Of a DNA stretch of 64,000 bases, positions 13,333-56,041 are shown piece after piece. The translations under genes and the position numbers were made by a program. The notes under the pieces are model-generated. The model did no database searches, was not told the DNA's origin, and saw nothing but the letters and a program-made list of their open reading frames with translations. The DNA is from an uncultured delta proteobacterium (lineage in GTDB: Bacteria; Desulfobacterota; RBG-13-43-22), in assembly GCA_963782435.1 (NCBI GenBank), contig CAWAKF010000050.1, positions 74,599 to 138,598 on the forward strand, read 5' to 3'. The stretch's first letter is position 1; the number at the start of each line of letters is the position of its first letter.

Positions 13333-13595
13333 TATTGACTTGTTTCAACACGCAGGTTTGCTTAGCTACCCAAAGGAGCCTTTATCAGGAAACTTAGTGC
13401 TTCAGGTTACCCTTTACACCTTCCTCAGGCTATGTGGGTGAACTACCAAACTCCCACAGTCGGACTTAAACCGACAAGTCATACGTTTTACACAGCATAC
13501 CCTACTACTCGTTTAACCTGACAGACATGAAAAGTTTTAATTACCGTTCATATCCTTCTATTGAACAACTTTGGATTGACGCTTATTCGAAATAT

Positions 13596-13698: not shown

Positions 13699-15511
13699 TT
13701 ACCAGGGCTTGGAAAACTGAAAAATTCCTGCTGCCTTCTGGGAATTTGGCGGCAGCGAGCTGATCGCTTTGCCAAAAGCTGCAGTGACCCCTTCTATGGT
13801 CAATTCTTCGTTCATCATCATCACATTCGCCTTATTGAAAGAGGCGTTGAAGACCAGCGACTTGGGCGCTCCCTGATCGTTGGACCATTTCTTCCACTCC
13901 GTCATGGGTGACGTCCCGTTTAGATTGTTCGGGTTGCCCGTCCAGGCGAAATTCTGGAGATACTTCATCATGGCCTGCTGAAGGTCCTTCCGGCCGGCCT
14001 CATTGGCGGAGACGAAAGAAAAGCCGAAGAGGCCCTTTTCATTCCCGAAAAAGAAAGGGATCTCTGCAGAGTGACCGGCACCGTAAATAAAATCGAAGGG
14101 AAGACGGCCCGGAACCGATTCCCCCCCACTTAAAAAGGTAGGCATACACGTTGTCCTGGACCTTGGCCAGTTCGTGGGCCACCGTATCCACATACTTGGC
14201 CTTCCAGTTTCGGCTGCCGTAGTACCCCGTGATTTCGTAAAGATCCTTGTCAGCCTGGGTAGGCAACACCTCGTTAAGGGTAAAGGCCCCTCCGCCGGGC
14301 TTCTGCTTCCCTTTAAGCATATCAAGCAAGTTGAACCATGTATATGGACCGGAAGGCACCCCGAGAGGTTTGACGGCTCCAGAAAATAGAGGCATAAACG
14401 CCTTACTCTCGTATTCGTTGCTCCCCAGAATAATCGGTACTTTATTATGTTTTCCCGCCTTTATTGTGGGCATCCAGCCTCCCGTGGGGATAACTGTTCC
14501 GTCTTCGATGCCGGGGAAAGTCGGCACCGCCCCATATTTGATGAGGGCCAGAAAGAATGTTCCGCTGTCGATAGCCTTCAGATAGGCCTTCAGTGTCCCA
14601 TTCTTTTCCATGGCTGTACGACGCTCCGCGGCCGCGGGCGCATCAATGTTTTCTTTGAGTCTGATAACCTTGTCAATATACCCATTAGCCGAGTTGAGCG
14701 CAGACGTTTTCGTTACAGTAGCCATTCCTCCACTTTGGGACATGGCCCGATGGAACAGACCCTTGCCGAGAGGTGAAACGACCAGGTTCATCACATTATG
14801 TCCACCTGCAGACTCCCCAGTAATGGTCACCTTACGGGGGTCGCCACCAAAGGACTGTATGTTTTCCTGAATCCATTTCAGCGCCTGAACATGATCAAGC
14901 GTTCCAAAGTTGCCCGAGTCGGCAAGCGGGTCCGCTCCACCCATTTGAAGCGTGGGGTGGAAAAACCATCCCAAGGGGCCAAGCCGATACTGGACATTAA
15001 CCAGGACCACATCCGACCGTTTTGCCAGGACTTTGCCATCATAGTCGCTTTCTCTGGCAGATCCGAAATTGTTAGAGCCTCCGTGAATCCAAACATAAAC
15101 CGGGAGTAGGTCTGAGTGTACAGGATTTTCGGGACGGTATATATCAACATAAAGGCAGTCTTCGCTGCTATCCGGGTCCACCGCACCAGTGCGAATCCAT
15201 TCCTCCGTTGTTAATAGTTGGGTGCACTTCATGGCCGGCTTTGTTGCCTCGCGAAGGCCGGTCCAAGGCTCGGGGTCCTTAGGGGGGGCCCAACGCAGAT
15301 GGTCTACAGGGGGGGTGGCGTAGGGAACGCCCTTCCAGATAATGGTTTCTTGGTCTAAGTAACCTTTGAGTTGACCATAGGCTGTATTTACCGTCGGGGT
15401 AATATCAACCTTGTTCGTAATTTGGGGAACTGCACAACCGGCAACAATTAAGATACAGGCCAATAGAAAAGCGGTTTTGCGTTGTAAAACATTGCTTATG
15501 AAATTTTTCAT
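13699..15511 (-). pseudogene. type-B carboxylesterase lipoprotein, frameshifted
   Basis: Lipobox LIVAGC and nucleophile motif GESAGG are present. ORF 14039..15511 and ORF 13699..14325 are the two halves of one esterase (...YAYLFKWGG / ESVPGRLPFDFIYGAGHSAEIPFFFGN). The frames switch at the C7 run 14121-14127. Confidence 0.8.
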
Positions 15512-15532
15512 GAATCTGTCTCCTTCTCCCTA

Positions 15533-15714
15533 TTAAGGTTTGCTGCTAATCTCTATAGAACAAAAACCCCGTCTCTCTCTTGAAAAACAGGGTTTCTTAA
15601 ATCTCCCCATATGCTGCCTCCCTTTAGAGTAAAGTGGCGTTGCTGGAAGACGGGTTATATTACAGATAAGACCTTTGAGTGGATTCCATTATACACGGAT
15701 TTGGGAAAAGTAAA
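15533..15714 (-). promoter_or_regulatory. promoter + structured leader + 25-codon mini-ORF + attenuator, copy A (upstream of the esterase gene)
   Basis: Extended -10 TGTATAAT (15688-15695). Conserved core CCGUCUUCCAGCAACGCC. Hairpin CUUUA-cuc-UAAAG overlaps the SD GGGAGG. ATG at 15610 and stop at 15533. Paralogous to 50268..50431. Confidence 0.55.
15561..15592 (-). terminator. intrinsic terminator/attenuator inside leader copy A
   Basis: The minus-strand RNA CCCUGUUUUU-caagag-AGAGACGGGG forms a 10-bp stem (with G.U pairs) followed by UUUUUG. It lies 50 nt upstream of the esterase ATG. Confidence 0.55.
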
Positions 15715-16020
15715 TAGGAGGTTTTTTATTACGAATTGATAAAGAATATAAAGATTTTAAGAGGAAAGAAAAAGAAGCCGGGTTGTTGCTTTCACCTACA
15801 ACTCTTGCTTGGGAGGTAGGCTAAAAATTGAGGATTACCGATGGAAATATGGAGAAATGATTGGACTGCCCCGTCCTTGTACTTGAGGTATCATCGCTCC
15901 TTTTTTGCTTATAGCCGCCTCCTTCCTCTAAGCTATCATAGAGATTGTCCTATTTTCTAATTTTTTAGCATCACCTCGTCCGAGATCCTTTAATTGAAAA
16001 GCAATACCTTTTAAAAAGGA

Positions 16021-16068
16021 AAGGCCGCCGCCCAAAGATTGGGACGGCCTTTATTCTTCTTTGTTTTT
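16021..16068. terminator. strong hairpin with T-rich tails on both strands
   Basis: AAGGCCGccgCCCAaagatTGGGaCGGCCTT, followed by tattcttctttgttttt on the + strand and tccttttt on the - strand. It lies about 200 nt downstream of the 16245 gene. Confidence 0.5.
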
Positions 16069-16244
16069 CTAATAGCCTCGGCTTAGACATTGGTTTTAAG
16101 AGGTCAAAGTGTAGGGGGGCTGTTTTTTCTTGCCAAGTGGATCGAAAAAAGGAACTGGCGGTGAAGTTAGGAAAGGGGGGTGCAAAAGTGGTCGATCCTT
16201 TGAAAAATCAAAAGGAAATTTCTTGGCGCCCCCTGCGAACTTTG

Positions 16245-16526
16245 CTAAATGGTGTCTGGACAACCACTATACGACCAATGTTCTATTACCCCTGATTCAT
16301 TCACGGTAAATGATTTTCTACAGACGTTCTGGTGGTGATTTCCCCACCGAGACTCCCAGGTTAAGATACGTTTACCATCCCTTGTATCCATTGCCCGGTG
16401 CGGTGCGCCCCAAGTGGAAACTAATTCTGACTCTTTATGACCCATCCAGGAATCCATCACAGATTTGGTTGCAGCGCAACTAACAAGGAATGTGAGACAG
16501 ACAACCACGATGATCCAGTATCTCAT
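16245..16526 (-). CDS. small lipoprotein, hypothetical
   Basis: Lipobox FLVSC. I prefer the ATG at 16526 (MRYWIIVVV...) with AAGGGGGA upstream. The track ORF extends to 16547. Confidence 0.55.
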   Translation of the reverse strand: MRYWIIVVVCLTFLVSCAATKSVMDSWMGHKESELVSTWGAPHRAMDTRDGKRILTWESRWGNHHQNVCRKSFTVNESGVIEHWSYSGCPDTI

Positions 16527-16617
16527 AAAGTCCCCCTTCGTTTTCATAATCTAACAAGTTATTATAAGGTTTCAATTTAATTAATAAAATTATAAGACAT
16601 TGCTTTTGAATGGTAGG

Positions 16618-18346: not shown

Positions 18347-18679
18347 GTCGAGTAGCCCGGGGGAATTTCACCCCAGGCCCTCACAGAACCGGACGTGACA
18401 GTCTCCCGTCATCCAGCTCCTATCATCCAGTTGCCTTTTATAGCAACTTTACCTTGCTTCCTGGCTCCTCCCATCGCTGGTTGACCAAAAGGCAAGGTCA
18501 GATGATCCAACCCCTTCGCTCCATCTCCATTACAGAGACTTCACCATTACTACGAGTTGGTCCATCCCTGTGCCCCGCATCGGTACTTTCATTCTTGTGG
18601 TTTCCTCCACTTGAATTTCTCCCTTAACATCGGGACGACAGGTTCCCACGTTCCATACATGAGCCTGGATCAGGTTCGC
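18347..18679 (-). mobile_element. group II intron fragment: ORF-less, 5'-truncated copy
   Basis: Contains DVI, DV (gagctggatgacgggagactgtcacgtccggttct), a short DIV with no RT ORF, and the distal part of domains I-III. It aligns to 22352-22430 and 23740-23895 of the full-length copy. Homology stops at 18679. Confidence 0.85.
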
Positions 18680-20360: not shown

Positions 20361-20633
20361 CTTCTTTTCACCGCCTATCGTTTGAGGTTATCAATAAGAA
20401 ACGTATAACCTTGACAATTAGATCTCATTGTCTGTCTAATTTTCTAAAATATCAAGCTATTCTTACAGATGATTACCGATTGAACCATTCCATTCTATTC
20501 AAGAGGGAGGTTTGAGGACTACAGGAAGCACTATCAGGCCGTCCTATGTTTTTTTGATGAAGTCCCGATTAACTCCCCAGAGCCGCCTAAAGAAAAAAGA
20601 AATTTATAAGTTGGAAGAGCCGTTTATTAAAAA

Positions 20634-22351: not shown

Positions 22352-24078
22352 GTTGAGTGGGACGAAGGAATCTCACCCCCACGCTCTCCGAGAACTGGAC
22401 GTGACAGTCTCCCGTCATCCAGCTCCTATTGTCCAGCCTTAACATGAGAAAGCTGCCAATGGGCAAAAAGTCCCGGTTGCCTATGCATTATGCCCTGCAA
22501 CCAAAGAAAAGCCCGCCGCTTGTGCCCCCTCAATCTTTTGTATTTCCGAGAGGCCCACTGAACCAGAATGTTGTTCAGGTATTGAAAGGTCCGGTAAAGG
22601 GCTGACTTGCGGTAGCGTCCGTAGTAGTTGATCCATCCCCTTAATGCCGGGTTGACCATCTGGGCCAGTTCATCCAGAGATTTATCCGTGCGTCGGTGCA
22701 GTTTCCATTGCCTCATGGCATCGCCTATCGATTTTGTGGCTTTGTTGCTGATTGCAGGATTAAATCCGATGAAAAATACACCCTGGGGATTTTTCGCTTC
22801 CCGAGGCCGAAACGTATAGCCCAGGAAATTAAACTCCTGCTCAGGATATTCCCCTCGCCGATTATCATCCATACAGTAGACAATCTTCGTCTTCTGCGAA
22901 TTTAACTCCAACCCACATTCCGCCAATCGCCCTTCAATCTCCTTCCGAAGCCCTTCTGCTTTGTCTTTGCTCCGACAGTGGCAAATCACATCATCGGCAT
23001 ACCGCTCGAAAGGAATCCGAGGATACTTCCTCTTCATCCACCTATCGAACGTATAATGTAAAAAGAGATTCGCCAGCAAGGGGCTGATCACTCCTCCTTG
23101 CGGTGTCCCCTTGTCCCGATGAATCAGGCTGCCATCCCCTAATTGCACCGGAACCTTCAGCCATCTTTCGATGTTGAGAAGAACCCATTTGCAATCGGTA
23201 TGTTTCCTTACCGCCCGCATCAAAAGACCGTGGTCGATATTGTCAAAGAAACCCTTGATGTCCAGATCAAGAACCCAGTCGTATCGCCAGCACCGCTGTC
23301 GTCCAACCCCTATGGCCTCAATCGCAGACTTCTTTGGCCGATACCCATAAGAGTCCGGATGGAAATGCTCTTCCAAAATCGGCTCCAGGTATCGTTTGAC
23401 TACCGTCTGGGCAATGCGATCTGCCACCGTTGGTATACCCAGCGGCCGCGTCCCCCCATTATCCTTTGGTATATCGACCCGACGTACCGGTGGTGGGAAA
23501 TAGCTCCCTGAGGACATCCGATTCCAGATCTTGAAAAGGTTGTCTTTCAAACCCTCTTCAAACTCTGCAATGGATTGCCCATCTACTCCAGCCGCTCCTT
23601 GGTTCGCCTTAACCCGTTTATAGGCCTCCCAGACTTCCCATTTTGAAATACAAAATGGCTTTGTTTTATCCACCAGGTTCCTCCCATTTCTGGTTGACCT
23701 GCAAATAAAGCCAGACAACACAGCCCCTTCGGTCCAGTTCCATTACAGAACCTTCCTCCCTACTACAGGCTGTTCCGCCCCCGTGCCCCGCATCGGTACT
23801 CTCATTCTTGTGGTTTCCTCCACTTGAATTTCTCCCTTAACATCGGGACAACAGGTTCCCACATTCCACACCTGAGCCTGGATCAGGTTCGCGCTACCTT
23901 TATGCCGGATGCCGCCCAGGCAGTAAACAGGTTTCTCCTGGACTGATCCCGGAGTTCCGTAAGCCCCCGGTTCTGACATCATCTATTCATTTCGACACCT
24001 CAGAAGTAGTTCGCTTCCGCTCGCCTCCCTGATCTTTACCTGACAGGGTCGTTGCCCTGCCTTTTCCTTAACGCTCAC
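22352..24078 (-). mobile_element. full-length group II intron (compact, class C-like)
   Basis: 5' end GUGAGCG at 24078. The RT ORF sits in DIV. A canonical DV lies at 22391-22425 (AGC triad, 2-nt bulge, GAGA loop). DVI has a bulged A and a 3' ...CUCAAC ending at 22352. Confidence 0.85.
22426..23673 (-). CDS. group II intron reverse transcriptase/maturase (no endonuclease domain)
   Basis: RT blocks include GAAGVDGQS, PKDNGGTRPLGIPTVADR and YADDVICHC. An X/thumb domain follows, and the protein then ends. I prefer the GTG at 23673 (GGGAGG 6 nt upstream); the track start is 23721. Confidence 0.9.
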   Translation of the reverse strand: MDKTKPFCISKWEVWEAYKRVKANQGAAGVDGQSIAEFEEGLKDNLFKIWNRMSSGSYFPPPVRRVDIPKDNGGTRPLGIPTVADRIAQTVVKRYLEPILEEHFHPDSYGYRPKKSAIEAIGVGRQRCWRYDWVLDLDIKGFFDNIDHGLLMRAVRKHTDCKWVLLNIERWLKVPVQLGDGSLIHRDKGTPQGGVISPLLANLFLHYTFDRWMKRKYPRIPFERYADDVICHCRSKDKAEGLRKEIEGRLAECGLELNSQKTKIVYCMDDNRRGEYPEQEFNFLGYTFRPREAKNPQGVFFIGFNPAISNKATKSIGDAMRQWKLHRRTDKSLDELAQMVNPALRGWINYYGRYRKSALYRTFQYLNNILVQWASRKYKRLRGHKRRAFLWLQGIMHRQPGLFAHWQLSHVKAGQ

Positions 24079-24665
24079 CACCATGGCTCTTGACCATAGC
24101 AGCTCATACCGACTTTCTTTCCCTTTACCCCCCTTCTTTACTCCTTCTACTTCTTCCATGGTAACACCCCTTTCTCCCTCTCAGGAGTGTCACCCTTTTT
24201 ACCCTTCTTCTTTATCTCATGATCTGGTAGTTAGCTCACCTTTCAAAATATACCAGCTATGGGTAAATCATACTGTTGCCGTTTTTAAATCCAAAGAATA
24301 TCAAGTATTTTCATTTATTACCATTTGAAGTCTCCCATTTTATCCAAAAGGGAAATTTGAGGATTTCAGGAAGGTTTACGTACTATAATAATCTGCATCT
24401 CTAAAAAAACCGTCTCCCCCAAGTTTTTCTCCAACACATTCTGCTTTTGGTCAAGGACATGACCGATATTGAGGGATATTGGATTGAAGGTTTGAAACGT
24501 AATGGTCTGGTAGAGACGGATGTATAGATAATTAGTTGCAGGAAGGCAGGATGGCGGGCAGTTGACTCTCAAAAGGTCATTTCCGTATTTCCAGATGGGA
24601 GTTTCACAACTCAGGCCCCCAAATTACCGTGAAGGCAACGGGGACCTGAGTGATAGTAATTCTGT

Positions 24666-43962: not shown

Positions 43963-44164
43963 TATAAGCATTTTTAAATTAAATCAAGAAATTATTAAAT
44001 CTGGTAGGGTGATACCCACTTTACCCGGTTTCCAAGATCGAGAATTTATTGTCAAATATTTTTGAAACGGATCAAACCTGCTTTTGACTCTTAAAAGAGG
44101 ACATTTCATCTCCTTAGACTTTACCCAAGGACAAAATAACTTCCCGATAAAGAAATGTCCCCAA

Positions 44165-44232
44165 TCTTGGAGGGAAATCAAGAAAAGAGTTCTTGCTTGA
44201 CGCTCTATCGCTTTTTCTCTATATTATATTCT
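44165..44232 (+). promoter_or_regulatory. hairpin + sigma70 promoter cassette, copy A
   Basis: Hairpin TCTTG/CAAGA followed by aaaagagttcttgcTTGACG-N17-TATATT. About 45 of 49 nt are identical to 55161-55210. Confidence 0.6.
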
Positions 44233-44305: not shown

Positions 44306-45931
44306 GTGAAAAACCTTTTTTGTGCTGATCGGGTCCTTATTAATGGCAAAATACTCACCGTGGACCCCGGAGACTCAATCATTGAGGCGGTAGCTATTAA
44401 GGACGGTAAATTCCTGGCCTGCGGTTCGACTTCCGAAATTATGGAATTAACCGGCGACAGGACAGAGGTCCTTGACCTTAAGCAAAAGACCGTCCTGCCC
44501 GGGATCATCGATTCGCACACGCACCCCAGCCTGGCCGCGTCACTGGTAACGGAAATCAACTGCCGCCAACCGGGAGTTCAGAGCATTGGGGATATCCTCC
44601 ACATGGTGAAAGAGCGATCGAATGACCTTGGTCCCGGCAAGTGGGTTCGGGGTGGAAATTTCAACGATTCCAAGCTGGTTGAGAATAGGCATATCACCCG
44701 CTGGGAACTCGATGAGGCGGCGCCCAATAACCCGGTGTTCATTCTCTCGGATACCGGGCACCAGTGCCTGGTGAACAGCGCGGCCCTTGAGCTGGCCGGG
44801 ATCAGCCGTCATACTCAGGATCCTCCGGGTGGCAAAATCGACAGAGATCCGAGCAATGAACCAACCGGTCTTCTGTACGAGACAGCCACCGTGCTGGCCA
44901 CACGGGTTATTCCTCCTTATACCGTCGAAGAGTTGAAGGAAGGTTTTAAAGTGGTCCTGGGTCAGTTTTCCGAGTGGGGCATAACCTCCACCCACGATGC
45001 CAGTGGTTACAACCTGGCCATCAGGGCCTACCAGCAGCTTTTGCATGAAGGTATCAAAAAGGTCAGGATGAATCTTATGGTCAGTGTTTTTCCAAAAGAA
45101 CCGGATGGCGTTAATCTGAATGAGGCCATGACCAATCTGGGTATCGAGAGCGGTTTCGGGAACGATTGGCTGAAAGTGATGACCCTTAAGATCATGGGGG
45201 ACGGATCGGGAGCGGGCGGTACAGCCGGGGTATACGAACCACAGAACAGAGGTCCCAAAGGGCTTGGCATCATGATGACTGATCCGGAGATTATGGAGCA
45301 ACTGGTCCTTAAGGCCCATAATTCAGGCCTCCGCTGCAGTATCCACAGCATTGGAGACCAGGGCATTGACATTGCCCTGGACTGTATCGAAAATGCCCAG
45401 AAGTTGCATCCGATCCCGGATATGCGTCACAGACTGGAGCATAACAGTTGCTGTACCCCGAAACAGCTTAAAAGAATCAAGGAGCTGGGGGTAACCCCTT
45501 CGAGCAGTATTGGATATATGTATGGTCTTGGAGACCAGTATTATGAGAATTTTGGACCGGAGAGGAGCCAATGGCTCCATCCTCACAAAACCATGCGGGA
45601 AATGGGCATCATTGCCGGTGGAAATAACGATTGTCCCATAACTTTCTATTCGCCCTTTGTTCAGATGTATGCCGCAGTAACCCGAAAGACCGGCAGTGGA
45701 AAGGTGATAGGCCCGGGGGAAGCCATAACCCTGATGGAGGCAATCCGGCTCTACACCTGGAACGGAGCCTACCTGAGTAAGGATGAGGATCGGCTGGGCA
45801 GCATTGAGCCGGGGAAATTGGCGGACCTGATCGTTATCGACCGGGATATTTTAAGTCTGCCCCTGGAGGACCTCCTGGAAACCAGGGTCCTGACGACCAT
45901 CGTGGATGGAAAAACTGTTTATCTGCGTTGA
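44306..45931 (+). CDS. metal-dependent amidohydrolase (amidohydrolase-3/YtcJ-like)
   Basis: 541 aa with the PGIIDSHTHP metal motif. GTG start with GGAGG 7 nt upstream. Confidence 0.85.
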   Translation: MKNLFCADRVLINGKILTVDPGDSIIEAVAIKDGKFLACGSTSEIMELTGDRTEVLDLKQKTVLPGIIDSHTHPSLAASLVTEINCRQPGVQSIGDILHMVKERSNDLGPGKWVRGGNFNDSKLVENRHITRWELDEAAPNNPVFILSDTGHQCLVNSAALELAGISRHTQDPPGGKIDRDPSNEPTGLLYETATVLATRVIPPYTVEELKEGFKVVLGQFSEWGITSTHDASGYNLAIRAYQQLLHEGIKKVRMNLMVSVFPKEPDGVNLNEAMTNLGIESGFGNDWLKVMTLKIMGDGSGAGGTAGVYEPQNRGPKGLGIMMTDPEIMEQLVLKAHNSGLRCSIHSIGDQGIDIALDCIENAQKLHPIPDMRHRLEHNSCCTPKQLKRIKELGVTPSSSIGYMYGLGDQYYENFGPERSQWLHPHKTMREMGIIAGGNNDCPITFYSPFVQMYAAVTRKTGSGKVIGPGEAITLMEAIRLYTWNGAYLSKDEDRLGSIEPGKLADLIVIDRDILSLPLEDLLETRVLTTIVDGKTVYLR

Positions 45932-49722: not shown

Positions 49723-50199
49723 CTAATCTATACAAAGATTCATGAGAAATCTTCCTCTATCAATAAATACTGATTTCCTCACGATTCCCACGTATCCGGC
49801 AGCGGGACCTGAACTACGTGTCGATCTCATATTCGCGCGGTAAACGTCTGGCATCAATTCATATATGTCATAAGTGCCGTTTTCAATCTCGAACGATCCT
49901 AATATGGCAGCGACCCTATCAAGCATCTGGTAAGTGACACCAACGCTATCCGTTTTTATCTTTGCGCACTTAATAACGACTTTTCGGTTGTTGATTTCGT
50001 ATTCATTACTCCTGGTATTCCCGGTCTTCAGGCCACCGAGTTTCTCAGCAATTATACTGGCTGTCTGCAATCCGTACTCAACCGCTCTTGCGCCACTTTC
50101 TTGCCCCTGTGGCATCGTCAATCTTTCATTTTCATGTTTTTTTTCGCCAAACGAAACCGTTTTGTTAGCCCGTTTCTGTTTCCTCTGGTTACCGCCCAA
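49723..50199 (-). CDS. hypothetical protein
   Basis: 158-aa ORF with a basic N-terminus. An alternative start is M29 at 50115. No family recognised. It is preceded by leader copy B. Confidence 0.5.
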   Translation of the reverse strand: MGGNQRKQKRANKTVSFGEKKHENERLTMPQGQESGARAVEYGLQTASIIAEKLGGLKTGNTRSNEYEINNRKVVIKCAKIKTDSVGVTYQMLDRVAAILGSFEIENGTYDIYELMPDVYRANMRSTRSSGPAAGYVGIVRKSVFIDRGRFLMNLCID

Positions 50200-50267
50200 T
50201 TTTGTTTTAATGGATATGACTACCCTTCTTTAAAAGTATTAACTTCAAATATTGATTTTTACCTCAT

Positions 50268-50431
50268 TTAAACAAAAAACCCCACCTCTCGGTTAAGAAA
50301 CGTGATTTCCTCCTCCTCCATTGGCTTGCCCTCCCTTTAGGGTAAAGGGGCGATGCTGGAAGACGGATTACCTTACCGATTTGGTCTTTGAATATAGTGG
50401 ATTATACACGATTTGGGGAAAAGAAAATAGG
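50268..50431 (-). promoter_or_regulatory. promoter + structured leader + 17-codon mini-ORF + attenuator, copy B
   Basis: TGTATAAT (50401-50408). Core CCGUCUUCCAGCAUCGCC. Hairpin CCCUUUA-ccc-UAAAGGG overlaps the SD. ATG at 50321 encodes MEEEEITFLNREVGFFV. A hairpin plus U6 lies at 50273-50305. Confidence 0.55.
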
Positions 50432-50861
50432 GGGTTTTTCTCTGGAGTGGGATCATTAAATTGGGGGGGTCCGTCAAAGAATACCGTTTGTACTCTTCCG
50501 GTTTTTTAAAAATTGAATTTAAAGGATAGCAGGAAGCAATGCTTCCGGTAGCCACCTATCTCCTTAAAATAAAACATCATTTTTTTCAATTAACCCTCCT
50601 AAAATTATAACATTTCAAATGGTTATAAATAGCTATCAAGAATTTCCCCCATTAATCTTGTCAATATTATTTGTTTTTTCGGTCAGTGTCACCTAAGAGG
50701 GAACTGATTCCGGCTATTGCAAAAAATTGTTTGATAAAAATGGGGAGATGGTAAAGAAACAACTGGGGGAAAAAAGGGGGCTATTAGTGTTTATGAGGAG
50801 TTTACTCAGACCGCAAACATCGTATCAAAAAAAATATTGAAATAATAAAGTTACCATAGGT

Positions 50862-51872
50862 TTATTTTAACTCCTTCAGTTTATTCAAAACTAACTGACC
50901 TGGATCAAAGTTGCCTTTTGCTTCCTTTAATAGACCCCCCAAAGGTATTTCCGCCCTGGCGGCATCTTTGTGCCCGCCAGCAGAGGCTCCCCATTGTTCA
51001 AAAAGTCGCTGGGCCGTTTTTCCAGCATTTCCACGAAAGCTCGCCTTTCTCAGAATAACGATCAACTTATCCTGGTTTATACCTGAGATGACGCTCCAGG
51101 TCGTTTCTGCAAGCCTAAGAAAAAAATCTGCCAGGATCACAAGAACATCGGGGTTTTCCACCTCTCCCATATAGACAAAGGATATTTTTTTAAAAAAGAC
51201 CAATTTCTCTATGGCGATTTTATAATTCGTCAGCATCTTTTTCGTCATTCCGGAGTTTTCAATCTTTTTGATGATATTCATATTTGAGTATTGATAGAGG
51301 TATCTGAAAGCACTGACATCGTTGGAGACGGAATCTCTCATAAAACTATTAGTATCTGTTTTTATACCATAGAAGAGAGCTGTAGCAAGCATCTGTGAAG
51401 GTCTAATTTTAGCCGCCTTGAGGTATTCGGTCATTATCGTTGAATTTGCGCCGTAGCTTTCTCTAATATCAATGAAACGGGCCTTAGATGCCGAATCAAC
51501 CGGATGATGATCGATGATAATATCAAAAGTCAGGTTCATAAACTGCTCATTATGGTGTGGTTGGGAATCAAGAAGACCCCATTTGGTGATTTGGGCAGGG
51601 TTCATATGCTGAATATGCTGCTGCTTGAAATTAAAGAGTTTGATGAAGGCTAAATTATCGGCTCGCTGAATGGTATTGACATGATAAATCAAAATCCTTT
51701 TTACTTTTCGCCACAATAATCTTTTTAAGGCAGCTGCACTGGCCATGGCATCAGGGTCGGCATTGATCAAAATAGCCAGTATATCATCCTGATCCAAAAT
51801 TTCTGTAAGTCGATTGTACTTTTCAGTTGAAGTAAGGGATTTCGGGAAGGGCCGTACTTTAATATTGTTCAT
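50862..51872 (-). CDS. DHH/DHHA1-family phosphoesterase (NrnA-like)
   Basis: DHH motif IIIDHHP and DHHA1 motif GGHKDAA. Start moved to MNNIKVRPF at 51872 because a TTGACC-N17-TATATT promoter lies inside the longer track ORF. Confidence 0.82.
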   Translation of the reverse strand: MNNIKVRPFPKSLTSTEKYNRLTEILDQDDILAILINADPDAMASAAALKRLLWRKVKRILIYHVNTIQRADNLAFIKLFNFKQQHIQHMNPAQITKWGLLDSQPHHNEQFMNLTFDIIIDHHPVDSASKARFIDIRESYGANSTIMTEYLKAAKIRPSQMLATALFYGIKTDTNSFMRDSVSNDVSAFRYLYQYSNMNIIKKIENSGMTKKMLTNYKIAIEKLVFFKKISFVYMGEVENPDVLVILADFFLRLAETTWSVISGINQDKLIVILRKASFRGNAGKTAQRLFEQWGASAGGHKDAARAEIPLGGLLKEAKGNFDPGQLVLNKLKELK

Positions 51873-51928
51873 ATGAGCCTGCTCCTCGGCTTCCAGTTTG
51901 ATGAGAAAATCTCTTTTTGTTACAAAAA

Positions 51929-51957
51929 ATATAAGCCAAGAAAAAGACAGGGTCAAG
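51929..51957 (-). promoter_or_regulatory. sigma70-like promoter
   Basis: Minus strand reads ctctccTTGACC-N17-TATATT. Confidence 0.5.
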
Positions 51958-52350
51958 GAGAGAGATAGGGCTATGTAAGTTGAATTTTACTTAATGAATA
52001 TCATTTGTACTCTGCCATCTTTGCTTTTTAAGAGGTTTGCGGATAGCAGGAAGAAGCCCTTATCCGATCTCCCTGTGCTCCTTTGAGATCTCCTTCCCGC
52101 CTCCATTATAAATTAATTTTCGGTTAGGGAAATGTCTCAATTACATTGGCCCTGAGGGCTACCAAGGTGTCTTTAGCCTTCAAACTGAATCTAACTTCAA
52201 CGGTAGTTAGCTATGCAGCACAACGCGGAGAAAAGTTTGCCAAAGAGAAAAACTTTCAACTGGCACTTTGAGACATACAGTTAATCAGGATCCTCCCACA
52301 TACTTCTAATATGATCTCAACGGAAAGCTTCTTGCAAAACCATCCCAACC

Positions 52351-53739: not shown

Positions 53740-53995
53740 GTCGAGTAGCCCGGGGGAATTTCACCCCCAGGCCCTCACAGATCCGGACGTGACAGTCTCC
53801 CGTCATCCGGCTCCTATCATCCAGTTGCCTTTTATAGCAACTTTACCTTGCTTCCTGGTTCCTCCCATCGCTGGTTGACCATAAGGCAAGGACGGATGAT
53901 CCGACCCCTTCACTCCATTCCCGTTACAGGAACTTCCACACTACTACGAGTTGGTCCGCCCCTGTGCCCCGCATCGGTACTCTCATCTGTGAGTT
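53740..53995 (-). mobile_element. group II intron fragment: second ORF-less, more deeply 5'-truncated copy
   Basis: It has DVI, DV and the same ORF-less DIV as the 18.3 kb copy. Homology to the full-length intron fades around 53987-53998. Confidence 0.85.
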
Positions 53996-54019
53996 CATCG
54001 ATTAGTCGAAAATGGTAGG

Positions 54020-54499
54020 TCACCTGTTATCGCCTCTCAGCGCATTTCTTGAGGCCCTATCCACAATTGTAAAAATTCTATCAATATCATCTTTTTGAGT
54101 TGATAGCCGATGTCCAGACACCTTAACAAATTCAAAGTCTTTTTTATCGGTCAAAGTATAAAATTGCTGATACAGCTTATAATTGTTGAGGAGCTTTTTT
54201 TTCTTTGAACGATAATTATTTAGCTCAAACCCATCACGTCGTCCCTGTAAACCCATTATGTTTTGAGAATCTGTATAAACAATCACCCTACCCTCCCAAG
54301 CTTGAATATCGCTTAGCGCCCATAATAAAGTCTCCAATTCCAATTTCGTTGAAGACGTATGCTCAAATCGCCTCACTTTCACTCTTGTCCTCAATGTTTC
54401 CAACGGAAGTCCACGTTCAGACACAGCGAGGTAAACTCCATATCCAATATTTGTCTGAATATTCACACTTCCATCTGTGAATAGCATTAGTTCAACCAT
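54020..54499 (-). CDS. rnhA: ribonuclease H (type 1)
   Basis: 159 aa with RNase HI catalytic contexts FTDGS, ELETLLWAL, YTDSQ and VSGH...D. The gene is visibly AT-rich compared with its neighbours. Confidence 0.75.
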   Translation of the reverse strand: MVELMLFTDGSVNIQTNIGYGVYLAVSERGLPLETLRTRVKVRRFEHTSSTKLELETLLWALSDIQAWEGRVIVYTDSQNIMGLQGRRDGFELNNYRSKKKKLLNNYKLYQQFYTLTDKKDFEFVKVSGHRLSTQKDDIDRIFTIVDRASRNALRGDNR

Positions 54500-54882: not shown

Positions 54883-55141
54883 GAAGGAAAAGAGGTCTGA
54901 ATAAAAAGTTTGGTCTGATTATCTTTTTTAATTACAATTTGAACCCTTTTATTTTTCCATTAAATAGGTTGGTAAATTTCAGGAAACAATTCTCCAAACT
55001 AACCCCGCTTCCCCAAGTAAATACTCTCAGGTTGCTCAAATAATCCCATCAAAATCTCCAGATTACCGGCAGCCTTAATCAGGACTTGAATCTTTCAAAT
55101 CGAAGTCCAGTGTTTACAAAATCCTGGAAAGTAGATCCCCC

Positions 55142-55211
55142 AGTCTCTGAAAGAGACTATAAAAAGAGTTCTTGCTTGACGGTCTATCGTTGTTTCTCTA
55201 TATTATATTTC
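55142..55211 (+). promoter_or_regulatory. hairpin + sigma70 promoter cassette, copy B
   Basis: Hairpin AGTCTCT-gaa-AGAGACT followed by aaaagagttcttgcTTGACG-N17-TATATT. It lies 42 nt upstream of the aldolase ATG. Confidence 0.6.
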
Positions 55212-55252: not shown

Positions 55253-56041
55253 ATGAGAAAAAACACAGCACTTGCCAAATGGCGCGCCGGGGAGCAGACG
55301 ATTGGCGCCTGGTTGTCTTTGGCCAACACGCACACCGCCGAGATGATGGCCAACGCCGGTTTCGACTGGTTGTGCGTTGACCTGCAGCACGGGCTGCTGG
55401 ATTACCAGGACCTGCTGCACATGCTTCCGGCCATCTCCACCACTGCGGTGGCGCCGATTGTGCGCGTGTCCGGTAACGACCCCAAGGAAATCATGAAGGT
55501 ACTGGACGCCGGGGCCCTCGGGGTAATCGTGCCGCTGGTCAACAATCGCCAGGATGCCCTGGCCGCCATCTCGGCCTGCCGCTATCCGCCGAGTGGTATC
55601 CGCTCTTTCGGCCCCATTCGTGCTGCCCTCTACGGCGGCCGTGGTTACGCAACCGAGGCTAATGACGAGATTGCCTGCATCGCCATGATTGAAACCAAGG
55701 AAGGGGTTGAAAATCTCGAATCCATCGTAACCACGCCCGGACTGGACGCCATCTATGTCGGCCCGTCGGATCTCGCCCTGGCCCTGGGGCTGCCGGCCCG
55801 CGGGGATACGGACGATCCGCTGCACCTGGCAACGGTCGACAGGATTCTATCGAGTTGTAAACAGCATGGTCTGCCCGTAGGTATCCACACCAACGGTCTG
55901 GCCTACACGCAGCGCCGGCTTAAAGCCGGATTCAATTTCGTGACCCTTAATTCGGATGCCGGTTTTATGATGCGGGCGGTTTACTCCGACCTGGCCGCGG
56001 CGCGGGCCGCTCAGAATAAGGAGCAGGGAACCACCGGCTGA
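55253..56041 (+). CDS. HpcH/HpaI-family aldolase
   Basis: 262 aa: WLSLANTHTAEMMANAGFDWLCVDLQHG...RVSGNDP...IAMIETKEG...DAIYVGPSDL. It is strikingly GC-rich. The 213-aa antisense ORF is an artefact. Confidence 0.9.
   Translation: MRKNTALAKWRAGEQTIGAWLSLANTHTAEMMANAGFDWLCVDLQHGLLDYQDLLHMLPAISTTAVAPIVRVSGNDPKEIMKVLDAGALGVIVPLVNNRQDALAAISACRYPPSGIRSFGPIRAALYGGRGYATEANDEIACIAMIETKEGVENLESIVTTPGLDAIYVGPSDLALALGLPARGDTDDPLHLATVDRILSSCKQHGLPVGIHTNGLAYTQRRLKAGFNFVTLNSDAGFMMRAVYSDLAAARAAQNKEQGTTG

Follow-up and report, generated by a model that had tools for sequence, protein, structure and literature searches.

A lineage-restricted, dispersed leader cassette with a predicted promoter and attenuator in uncultured Thermodesulfobacteriota

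The window analysed here is a stretch of 64,000 nucleotides from an uncultured delta proteobacterium (contig CAWAKF010000050.1 of assembly GCA_963782435.1, positions 74,599 to 138,598 of the forward strand), and it carries on its minus strand two copies of an intergenic element, referred to as copy A and copy B, each of which combines a putative promoter, a structured leader with a short open reading frame (mini-ORF) and a predicted intrinsic terminator. The interpretation favoured here, held with moderate confidence, is that both copies belong to a promoter-plus-attenuator leader cassette that is restricted to one lineage of uncultured Thermodesulfobacteriota, has been duplicated and is decaying. 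The family is genuine, has not been catalogued earlier and is absent from Rfam; elements of this general kind are already known. A first reading of the DNA made without database searches (the sequence-only reading) had described the two regions as paralogous promoter-leader-terminator modules standing before unrelated genes, and this description is borne out: the minus strands of 15500-15760 and 50240-50480 align with 77% mean column identity over 268 columns, an independent repeat finder recovers a two-copy family at 15617-15726 and 50330-50439 (80% identity over 110 nt), and the core CCGTCTTCCAGCAWCGCC occurs exactly twice in the 64 kb where 0.01 occurrences are expected by chance. The alignment that had been put at about 170 nt reflects real homology which is longer than was proposed, with the paralogous copies extending over 15557-15726 and 50270-50585 of the minus strand. 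Both the extended -10 element and the conserved 5' segment that had been pointed out are present in the sequences of the two copies.

The cassette is not limited to the window. When 185,579 species genomes were scanned with an exact pattern, 26 stretches matched, of which 21 are chance matches within coding DNA and five are true homologues; the latter all derive from three metagenome-assembled genomes (MAGs) of uncultured "delta proteobacterium" or Deltaproteobacteria, with three of the five in a single MAG. A stricter pattern run on a metagenome collection added two copies. A covariance model of the leader, R1, was built from nine copies and then run together with nhmmer on contigs fetched from close relatives, and every one of these contigs, including those that carry orthologues of the esterase gene downstream of copy A, contains diverged copies. 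Two copies each are found at L010, L038 and L039, three at L030, five at L033 and one at L040, which amounts locally to five copies in 17.7 kb (L033) and three copies in 21.8 kb (L030). In total, approximately 23 distinct copies are known from MAG and metagenome contigs of uncultured Thermodesulfobacteriota ("delta proteobacterium"). Homologues are thus plentiful, with more than 20 copies, as opposed to the lack of further homologues with covariation that the sequence-only reading had named as grounds for abandoning its proposal; statistical covariation, the other half of that proviso, is indeed absent and is taken up below. Leaders of subfamily 1 share the consensus ...GUCUUCCAGCAACGCCACUUUACCCUAAAGGGAGGCAAGCAUAUGGAGGAAUUUAGGAAACCCCGUUUCUCAAnnGAGAGGYGGGGUUUUUU, within which the stretch GUCUUCCAGCAACGCCAC is almost invariant, and those of subfamily 2 carry ...UUUUCAUGGCGGCAACCUUUACAAAGGAGUGUCAAUGGAAGAAUAACAGACCCCAUUUCUC....

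The range of the family is narrow. At the orthologous locus the cassette is retained upstream of esterase orthologues with 90% and 84% identity, and it is missing upstream of those with 75% (L037) and 68% (L035/L036) identity, even with the model filters switched off. Neither the PLSDB plasmids nor the INPHARED phages contain a blastn match to the 321-nt unit. A scan of the whole window and six related loci with the covariance models of Rfam 15 matched group II intron and tRNA alone, and at E<=10 the two window copies themselves gave chance-level matches far under the cut-offs (rnk_pseudo at 16 bits and FsrA at 14 bits), which agrees with the earlier failure to place the core in any known riboswitch class. 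As judged from these sequence searches, the cassette family is confined to one narrow lineage of uncultured Thermodesulfobacteriota.

The full unit measures about 270-330 nt and is composed of three parts. The first is an upstream module of approximately 80 nt (CTTCCTGwAmTC ... ArGAGTwCAAAyGGTAATC), the second is the promoter region, in which an A-tract that often follows TTCCnGGAA leads into TTGACT-N15-TGTATAAT, and the third is a putatively transcribed leader of about 131 nt with two hairpins, the second of which is the predicted intrinsic terminator. According to all-against-all blastn and nhmmer searches with a 319-nt profile, homology begins about 140-195 nt upstream of the predicted start in six copies; copy B is one of these and its homology reaches to approximately 50585, some 185 nt upstream of the predicted start. 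On the 3' side homology ends in all copies at the exact end of the terminator U run, with the exception of the copies in front of cyclase paralogues, where it continues into the coding region. The extended -10 TGTATAAT is conserved across the promoter-bearing copies, and the first transcribed bases vary. The upstream module is common to the six full cassettes, is lacking in copy A and is also found alone; it could serve to bind a regulator or could constitute a repeat family apart from the cassette. In the window, stand-alone modules lie on the minus strand at 51993-52073, 24317-24408 and 20466-20532, and others are found at L033 3586-3657 and L010 3729-3801; they precede other promoter-like sequences and genes, such as the DHH/DHHA1 gene at 50862-51956 of the window. 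Within 15727-15900 (minus strand) about 60 nt upstream of copy A (..CTCAAGTACAAGGACGGGGCAGTCCAATCATTTCTCCA..) resemble the DNA that precedes the L010 copy, at approximately L010 860-970, and this resemblance falls outside the cassette as defined from other copies.

For 21 of the approximately 23 copies it can be decided how they lie relative to the gene that follows, and 19 of these share its orientation. Eight copies precede paralogues of a class III cyclase-TPR gene; in seven of these the start codon follows the terminator end by about 20-26 nt, and in L040 by 88 nt. Distances of about 20-50 nt are likewise found upstream of the window esterase, the L030 esterase, a signal-peptide protein in L028 and an NHL protein in L033. 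With so short a gap between U run and start codon in most copies (20-50 nt), a separate promoter does not fit in. The carboxylesterase lipoprotein gene follows copies in the window, in L030 and in L033; the other downstream genes comprise the 158-aa ORF after copy B and genes for a GYD-domain protein, a DASS-type permease, a dienelactone hydrolase (DLH), an NHL-repeat protein, DinB and a signal-peptide (secreted) protein, and these genes have no pathway or functional theme in common. Sequences with at least 80% identity over at least 50 nt thereby stand upstream of non-homologous genes of one genome, as is asked of mobile promoters and attenuators, both in the window (esterase and unrelated ORF) and within MAG MFD03323.bin.1.124 (L004, L007, L010), within L030 and within L033, and in most copies RNAfold predicts a 5' intrinsic terminator directly upstream of the gene. 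Two of the downstream reading frames call for comment. The cyclase-like ORFs were considered as a genuine family of proteins of about 100 aa, which is rejected: they are fragments of split cyclase-TPR genes in long-read MAG contigs and lie beside other split genes. The window carboxylesterase is itself spread over two frames, 14039-15511 and 13699-14325 (minus strand), its orthologues being about 600 aa long. Long-read contigs of related MAGs contain numerous genes broken in this way, so the split probably stems from a frameshift in the assembly, and the gene is probably no pseudogene.

The leader folds into the same two hairpins whether RNAalifold is applied to nine copies or RNAfold to single copies, where all 15 of the 15 copies folded agree. 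Hairpin 1 spans about 50 nt, has a predicted stability of -12 to -18 kcal/mol and is closed by the helix UCUUCCA/UGGAGGA, inside which follow GC/GC, GCC/GGC and a short apical helix (CCC/GGG or CUUUA/UAAAG). The sequence-only reading had singled out the pairing of CUUUA with UAAAG in copy A and its counterpart in copy B; this pairing is not conserved as such, and the conserved fold is the larger hairpin. Hairpin 1 buries a Shine-Dalgarno (SD)-like GGGAGG together with an AUG and codons 2-3, and an A-rich linker of about 10 nt connects it to the terminator, whose hairpin and U run range from -8 to -22 kcal/mol across copies in RNAfold predictions. Separate profiles of hairpin 1 and of the terminator match the same loci only; in approximately 200 kb the two occur together in all full copies and neither is found alone. 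The terminator therefore belongs to this cassette specifically, as opposed to being of a general type used throughout these genomes. In a 16-copy alignment, standard pairs occupy 90.7% of cells, and this share drops to 46-60% if the partners are displaced by 1-3 columns. A few exchanges are compensatory: terminator pair 73-90 is AU in five, GC in five and GU in five copies, and the P1 pair 13-52, which includes the G of the AUG, is CG in ten and UA in two, both UA copies having AUA in place of AUG.

One conceivable function of this fold is that of a sensor, in which hairpin 1 acts as the aptamer of a metabolite riboswitch or as a thermosensor and controls the adjacent terminator, placing many unrelated genes under one signal. 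The occurrence upstream of diverse genes, including genes for signalling proteins, would suit such a role. Riboswitches for cyclic di-GMP (c-di-GMP) in related bacteria are likewise found upstream of diverse genes. Subfamily 1 keeps the internal loops of hairpin 1, and in silico blocking of the 5' strand of this hairpin releases GAGGAAU, which then pairs with GUUUCUC of the terminator 5' arm in L008, L012 and copy B. This candidate antiterminator, a helix of 6-7 bp, does not form in copy A, contains mismatches in subfamily 2 and falls far short of the terminator in strength. The loop sequences drift: the 'core' AGCAACGCC is replaced in other copies by AGUUUUGCC, AGUUCCGCC, AAUGGCAAA or GGCAACC, and the apical loop of both L038 copies is interrupted by a palindrome of 148 nt that resembles a miniature inverted-repeat transposable element (MITE), with the base of hairpin 1 and the terminator left intact. 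A metabolite riboswitch, one of the roles offered by the sequence-only reading, is made unlikely by the drifting core, by the lack of a predicted antiterminator in the unperturbed fold and by the missing theme among downstream genes. A classical RNA thermometer, another of those roles, is ruled out because the masked SD and AUG belong to the mini-ORF, and the ribosome-binding site (RBS) of the regulated gene lies outside the structure, after the terminator. With neither an Rfam match at E<=10 nor covariation, and with a family restricted to one narrow lineage, a sensor RNA of either type is considered very unlikely. The MITE-like element is not limited to these two copies; it has a hairpin of -61.5 kcal/mol and the ends GAGAGACCTTTG/CAAAGGTCTCTC, and is found at L038 6592-6739 and 9767-9911 and at L030 19096-19225.

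The mini-ORF invites an explanation by translation. The mini-ORFs described for the two window copies, each with a stem-loop and T-run inside it, are present (Table 1), and the ATG, which had been placed 6-7 nt after the SD, lies 6 nt from the GGAGG core in copy A as stated and 8 nt from it in copy B. As a feature of the family, the mini-ORF does not hold up. The AUG is kept in 17 of the 22 copies that are readable at this position and is replaced by AUA in L030b, L033c and L033d and by AGG in L033a, L030c having nothing in its place. In AUG-bearing copies the ORF lengths are 3, 4, 11, 17, 18, 20, 20, 21, 22, 23, 25, 27, 32, 32, 45 and 54 codons, single-base indels cause copy B and L010a to cross the terminator in a frame other than that of the remaining copies, and the amino-acid changes follow compensatory changes in the terminator stem. 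With start codon, frame and length all variable, a leader-peptide attenuator with a conserved translatable ORF, which had also been put forward, is not supported; on comparison of the copies a conserved peptide is excluded and the mini-ORF appears as a by-product of the cassette. A role for translation as such is possible, because some of the changes in codons 2-6 are synonymous (UUU/UUC, AGG/CGG and AGG/AGA).

Such a role is spelled out in a translation-gated attenuator with precedent in pyrBI-type systems: opening of hairpin 1 would free the SD and AUG, and a ribosome would then enter the 5' arm of the terminator, or park there in the versions with 3-4 codons, and so block termination. The strong SD-like GGAGG stands at a fixed 6-8 nt before the AUG in 17 of the 22 copies, the ORF enters or ends at the terminator in every AUG-bearing copy, with the 3-4-codon versions stopping about 7-10 nt before the stem, several of the codon 2-6 changes are synonymous as noted, and three of the four AUG-less copies that retain a terminator have a weakened terminator or U tract. 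Against this, five copies have lost the AUG and two of these are compensated on the pairing strand by a change from C-G to U-A, which points to RNA pairing and not initiation as the constraint. The frame in which the terminator is crossed, the peptide and the length (3 to 54 codons) all differ, and hairpin 1 is stable (-12 to -18 kcal/mol) and has no known opener. Gating by translation of the mini-ORF is accordingly regarded as decidedly unlikely.

A different use of the same parts would be a family of stand-alone, trans-acting small RNAs (sRNAs) of about 130 nt with their own promoter and terminator, comparable to the Qrr or csRNA paralogues, in which the anti-SD-like UCUUCCAGCAACGCC serves as seed and read-through into the next gene is incidental. 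The architecture is fitting, in that conserved DNA precedes a strong promoter and the short RNA ends at a strong terminator followed by U residues, GUCUUCCAGCAACGCCAC is almost invariant in subfamily 1, there are many copies per genome and one of them faces a convergent gene. However, the marked bias of orientation towards the next gene and the very short spacing to its RBS are not accounted for in this way, the putative seed is base-paired within hairpin 1 in every predicted fold and is not conserved in subfamily 2, L030b, L038 and L040, and some copies without a promoter lie within co-oriented strings of genes. Contig depth in metatranscriptomes is modest, although small RNAs are usually under-sampled. 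A search of the window for a trans partner complementary to GUCUUCCAGCAACGCCAC recovered only the cassette elements themselves. It is unlikely, on balance, that the cassettes are sRNA genes.

Many copies show signs of turnover. L030a and L030b have no promoter and start directly after the stop codon of the preceding gene; in L030c, L027 (16-156) and L039 (8305-8415) the promoter and the start of the leader are kept and the terminator is gone. The leaders of the three esterase genes represent different states: the one in the window has promoter, AUG and strong terminator, that of L030b has no promoter, AUA for AUG and a core that has drifted to AAUGGCAAA, its terminator being weak (-8 kcal/mol), and in L033 a subfamily-2 copy lies 133 nt upstream of the gene with the remnant of an older terminator between copy and RBS. 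At L030 7443-10001, two copies flank a block composed of a cyclase fragment, an MNT/HepT toxin-antitoxin pair and an enoyl-CoA hydratase, and the whole stands between a BamE-like gene and the esterase; in the corresponding segment of the window, 15511-16547, the same outer genes are present and the block is missing. This difference suggests deletion or insertion by recombination between copies, and repeated units of this kind are likely recombination substrates.

This raises the question of whether the cassette is merely a neutral or selfish dispersed repeat, spread by duplication and recombination, whose promoter-like and terminator-like parts have no selected role at most sites. The family is young and of narrow distribution, its decay is visible in lost promoters, AUGs and terminators, in the MITE insertion and in nested remnants, the orthologous leaders of copy A and L030b are heavily diverged including the 'core', and the same genomes harbour other dispersed repeats in the form of the upstream module, the palindromic MITE and group II introns. 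A neutral repeat would not be expected to show near-uniform co-orientation and tight abutment to start codons, even diverged copies preserve the base pairs of hairpin 1 and terminator, with a few compensatory changes, and the -10 box is better conserved than its surroundings. A repeat without function is therefore judged improbable as an explanation of the family as a whole.

The promoter-plus-attenuator interpretation can be put together as follows. The TG-extended -10 would drive transcription, most transcripts would stop at the terminator to yield an RNA of about 130 nt, and the downstream gene, with too little space for its own promoter, would be expressed by read-through only; the cassette would in this manner set, and possibly gate, the expression of whichever gene follows. 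Hairpin 1 is the sole conserved element that could serve as a handle for a trans-acting factor, either a protein or an RNA that binds the conserved 5' strand, and conditional control via hairpin 1 is possible. The cassette may have originated as the native leader of the expanded class III cyclase-TPR gene family and may have been copied, whole or in part, before unrelated genes by duplication and recombination. Copies would then decay through loss of the promoter or the AUG, weakening of the terminator or insertion of a MITE, or would be superseded by a newer copy upstream of the old remnant.

Several observations weigh against this interpretation. A consensus promoter and terminator scanner called neither feature; given this silence and a best -35 that sits at a spacer of 15 nt, the promoter call rests on the perfect TG-extended -10, and the terminator call likewise rests on the hairpin and U run found by RNAfold. 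The unit ends carry neither terminal inverted repeats nor target-site duplications, hence there is no visible mechanism of mobilisation. The alignment has no statistical covariation, as column shuffles reach 90.3% standard pairs compared with 90.7% in the real alignment; this absence is expected because the family is young and a pyrimidine strand faces a purine strand. Folds of the nascent transcript and of the full-length leader keep hairpin 1 and form no antiterminator, so that nothing shows conditional termination. Two copies depart from the rule of placement: L039 8305-8415, which lacks a terminator, faces a convergent gene, and L033 8751-8871 is ambiguous with no co-oriented gene nearby. 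A search for RNA-seq data at the window loci found none, and start site, termination and read-through are thus inferred. Related copies are present in two sediment metatranscriptomes as parts of longer contigs (Logan) of depth 4-14 that run through the promoter and past the terminator; these fit read-through or DNA carry-over, and Logan contigs do not resolve RNA ends.

The cassette answers to the published descriptions of both putative mobile promoters and mobile attenuators. Putative mobile promoters (PMPs) are highly similar promoter regions before non-homologous genes in one genome, some of them with RNA motifs, whose mobilisation is unknown (Matus-Garcia, Nijveen and van Passel 2012; PMC3575422). 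Like PMPs, the cassette stands before non-homologous genes and has no known transposable element attached. Unlike PMPs, it is long (270-330 nt) and modular with a complete structured leader and terminator, it reaches a high copy number (several per 20 kb in some contigs) and it seemingly stems from one paralogous gene family (cyclase-TPR). In the case of 'mobile attenuators', also described as attenuator regulons, conserved terminator sequences stand 5' of unrelated genes; these mobile attenuators are the 3' terminators of insertion sequence (IS) elements or prophages (Naville and Gautheret 2010; PMC2965389). The cassette differs from these in that it has no IS link or inverted ends, brings its own promoter and contains a second conserved hairpin. 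With the Correia, ERIC and REPIN repeats it shares the nature of a short intergenic repeat of high copy number that gives its neighbours promoter and/or terminator activity, which is predicted in the present case. Those repeats have terminal inverted repeats and target-site duplications and occur in either orientation, whereas the cassette is asymmetric, is devoid of both features and almost always faces the next gene.

Resemblances to classical leaders are also limited. As in attenuators of the trp/his or pyrBI type, a promoter, a short ORF with a strong SD and a terminator that overlaps or follows the ORF are arranged directly upstream of a gene; unlike in those attenuators, the start codon, frame and length vary, regulatory codons are missing and no 2:3 antiterminator is predicted. 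The rpoS leader has a hairpin that sequesters its translation initiation region and is opened by a factor in trans, the small RNA DsrA or RprA. The cassette is similar in that its SD/AUG region is held in a long, irregular hairpin by a pyrimidine-rich strand located upstream, and differs in that the sequestered SD and AUG are part of a mini-ORF that is not conserved, as opposed to being those of the regulated gene, and in that no partner RNA was found in the window. Three further classes of element were considered and rejected. Transposable repeats of the MITE, Correia or REP-like type do not apply as the unit has neither inverted repeats at its ends nor duplicated flanks; integron attC sites (VCR-like) do not, as the sequence read contains no RYYYAAC ... 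GTTRRRY core sites and has a promoter and terminator instead; and a type III toxin-antitoxin system (ToxIN-like) does not, as the leader has no tandem repeats and is followed by diverse genes that do not code for toxins.

If the cassette works as outlined, the lineage could rewire many genes fast by copying a ready-made promoter-plus-attenuator unit, as opposed to evolving regulation gene by gene. A more far-reaching proposal is that hairpin 1 and the terminator represent a new class of portable, factor-responsive attenuator, with the 5' strand bound by a protein, a small RNA or a ligand, which one uncultured Desulfobacterota lineage has placed before dozens to hundreds of unrelated genes, building a regulon from copies of the switch and not from newly evolved binding sites; or, alternatively, that the spread is due to a mobilisation mechanism not yet described, which is considered because the cassette is directional and without inverted ends. 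We regard this proposal as speculative and unlikely. The promoter-plus-attenuator interpretation adds to the known leaders a structured family that is absent from Rfam and comes from a poorly studied uncultured group, its value being limited by the narrow distribution and the lack of covariation. In practical terms, the cassette accounts for strings of spurious "genes" of 17-54 codons and helps to annotate transcription units in these MAGs.

Table 1. Parts of the two cassette copies in the window and the reading frames that follow them (CM, covariance model)
Feature	Position	Strand	Basis and remarks
Copy A, -35-like hexamer TTTACT	15709..15714	-	read from sequence; 15-nt spacer to -10; TTGACT at this place in other copies
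Copy A, extended -10 TGTATAAT	15688..15695	-	sequence and alignment
Copy A, leader RNA ('R module'), predicted start to end of terminator U run	15557..15687	-	CM R1, 123 bits, E 8e-32
Copy A, hairpin 1, GUCUUCC/GGGAGAU around GC/GC, GCC/GGC and apical hairpin	15601..15651	-	RNAfold -11.6 kcal/mol alone; RNAalifold consensus
Copy A, SD-like GGGAGG and ATG, both within hairpin 1	15617-15622 (GGGAGG); 15608-15610 (ATG)	-	sequence and RNAfold
Copy A, mini-ORF MGRFKKPCFSRERRGFCSIEISSKP, 25 codons + stop	15533..15610	-	sequence; not conserved in family
Copy A, predicted intrinsic terminator, 11-bp stem CCCUGUUUUUC/GAGAGACGGGG, loop AAGA, then UUUUUGUU	15559..15592	-	RNAfold -21 kcal/mol
Gene 3' of copy A, type-B carboxylesterase lipoprotein	14039..15511	-	RBS AAGGAG at 15520-15525; PF00135; frame broken
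Copy B, upstream module (CTTCCTG..GAGTACAAACGGTATTC)	50470..50585	-	nhmmer with 319-nt unit, E 1.6e-87 over 50270-50582
Copy B, extended -10 TGTATAAT	50401..50408	-	sequence and alignment; -35-like TTTTCT at 50422-50427
Copy B, leader RNA ('R module')	50270..50400	-	CM R1, 125.6 bits, E 1.7e-32
Copy B, hairpin 1, (G)UCUUCCA/UGGAGGA; buries GGGAGGG 50329-50335 and ATG 50319-50321	50314..50364	-	RNAfold -17.9 kcal/mol
Copy B, mini-ORF MEEEEITFLNREVGFFV, 17 codons + stop	50268..50321	-	terminator crossed in frame unlike most copies
Copy B, predicted intrinsic terminator UCACGUUUCUU/GAGAGGUGGGG, one A-G mismatch, then UUUUUUGUUU	50270..50305	-	RNAfold about -10 to -12 kcal/mol; weaker than that of copy A
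ORF 3' of copy B	49723..50199	-	158 aa from TTG, or 130 aa from ATG (MPQGQ...); no Pfam domain

The window contains further repeated sequences besides the cassette. A second paralogous, promoter-like pair is located on the plus strand at 44159-44230 and 55138-55209 (82% identity over 72 nt, TTGACG-N17-TATATT), upstream of the ORFs 44306-45931 and 55253-56041. Pieces of group II introns, detected as Rfam matches, lie on the minus strand at 13338-13477, 18347-18679, 22352-24115 and 53740-54073. One of these looks ORF-bearing, with domains D1-D4 at 24038-24115, an ORF at 22426-23721 and D5/6 at 22352-22427, and the truncated or ORF-less copies form repeat families.

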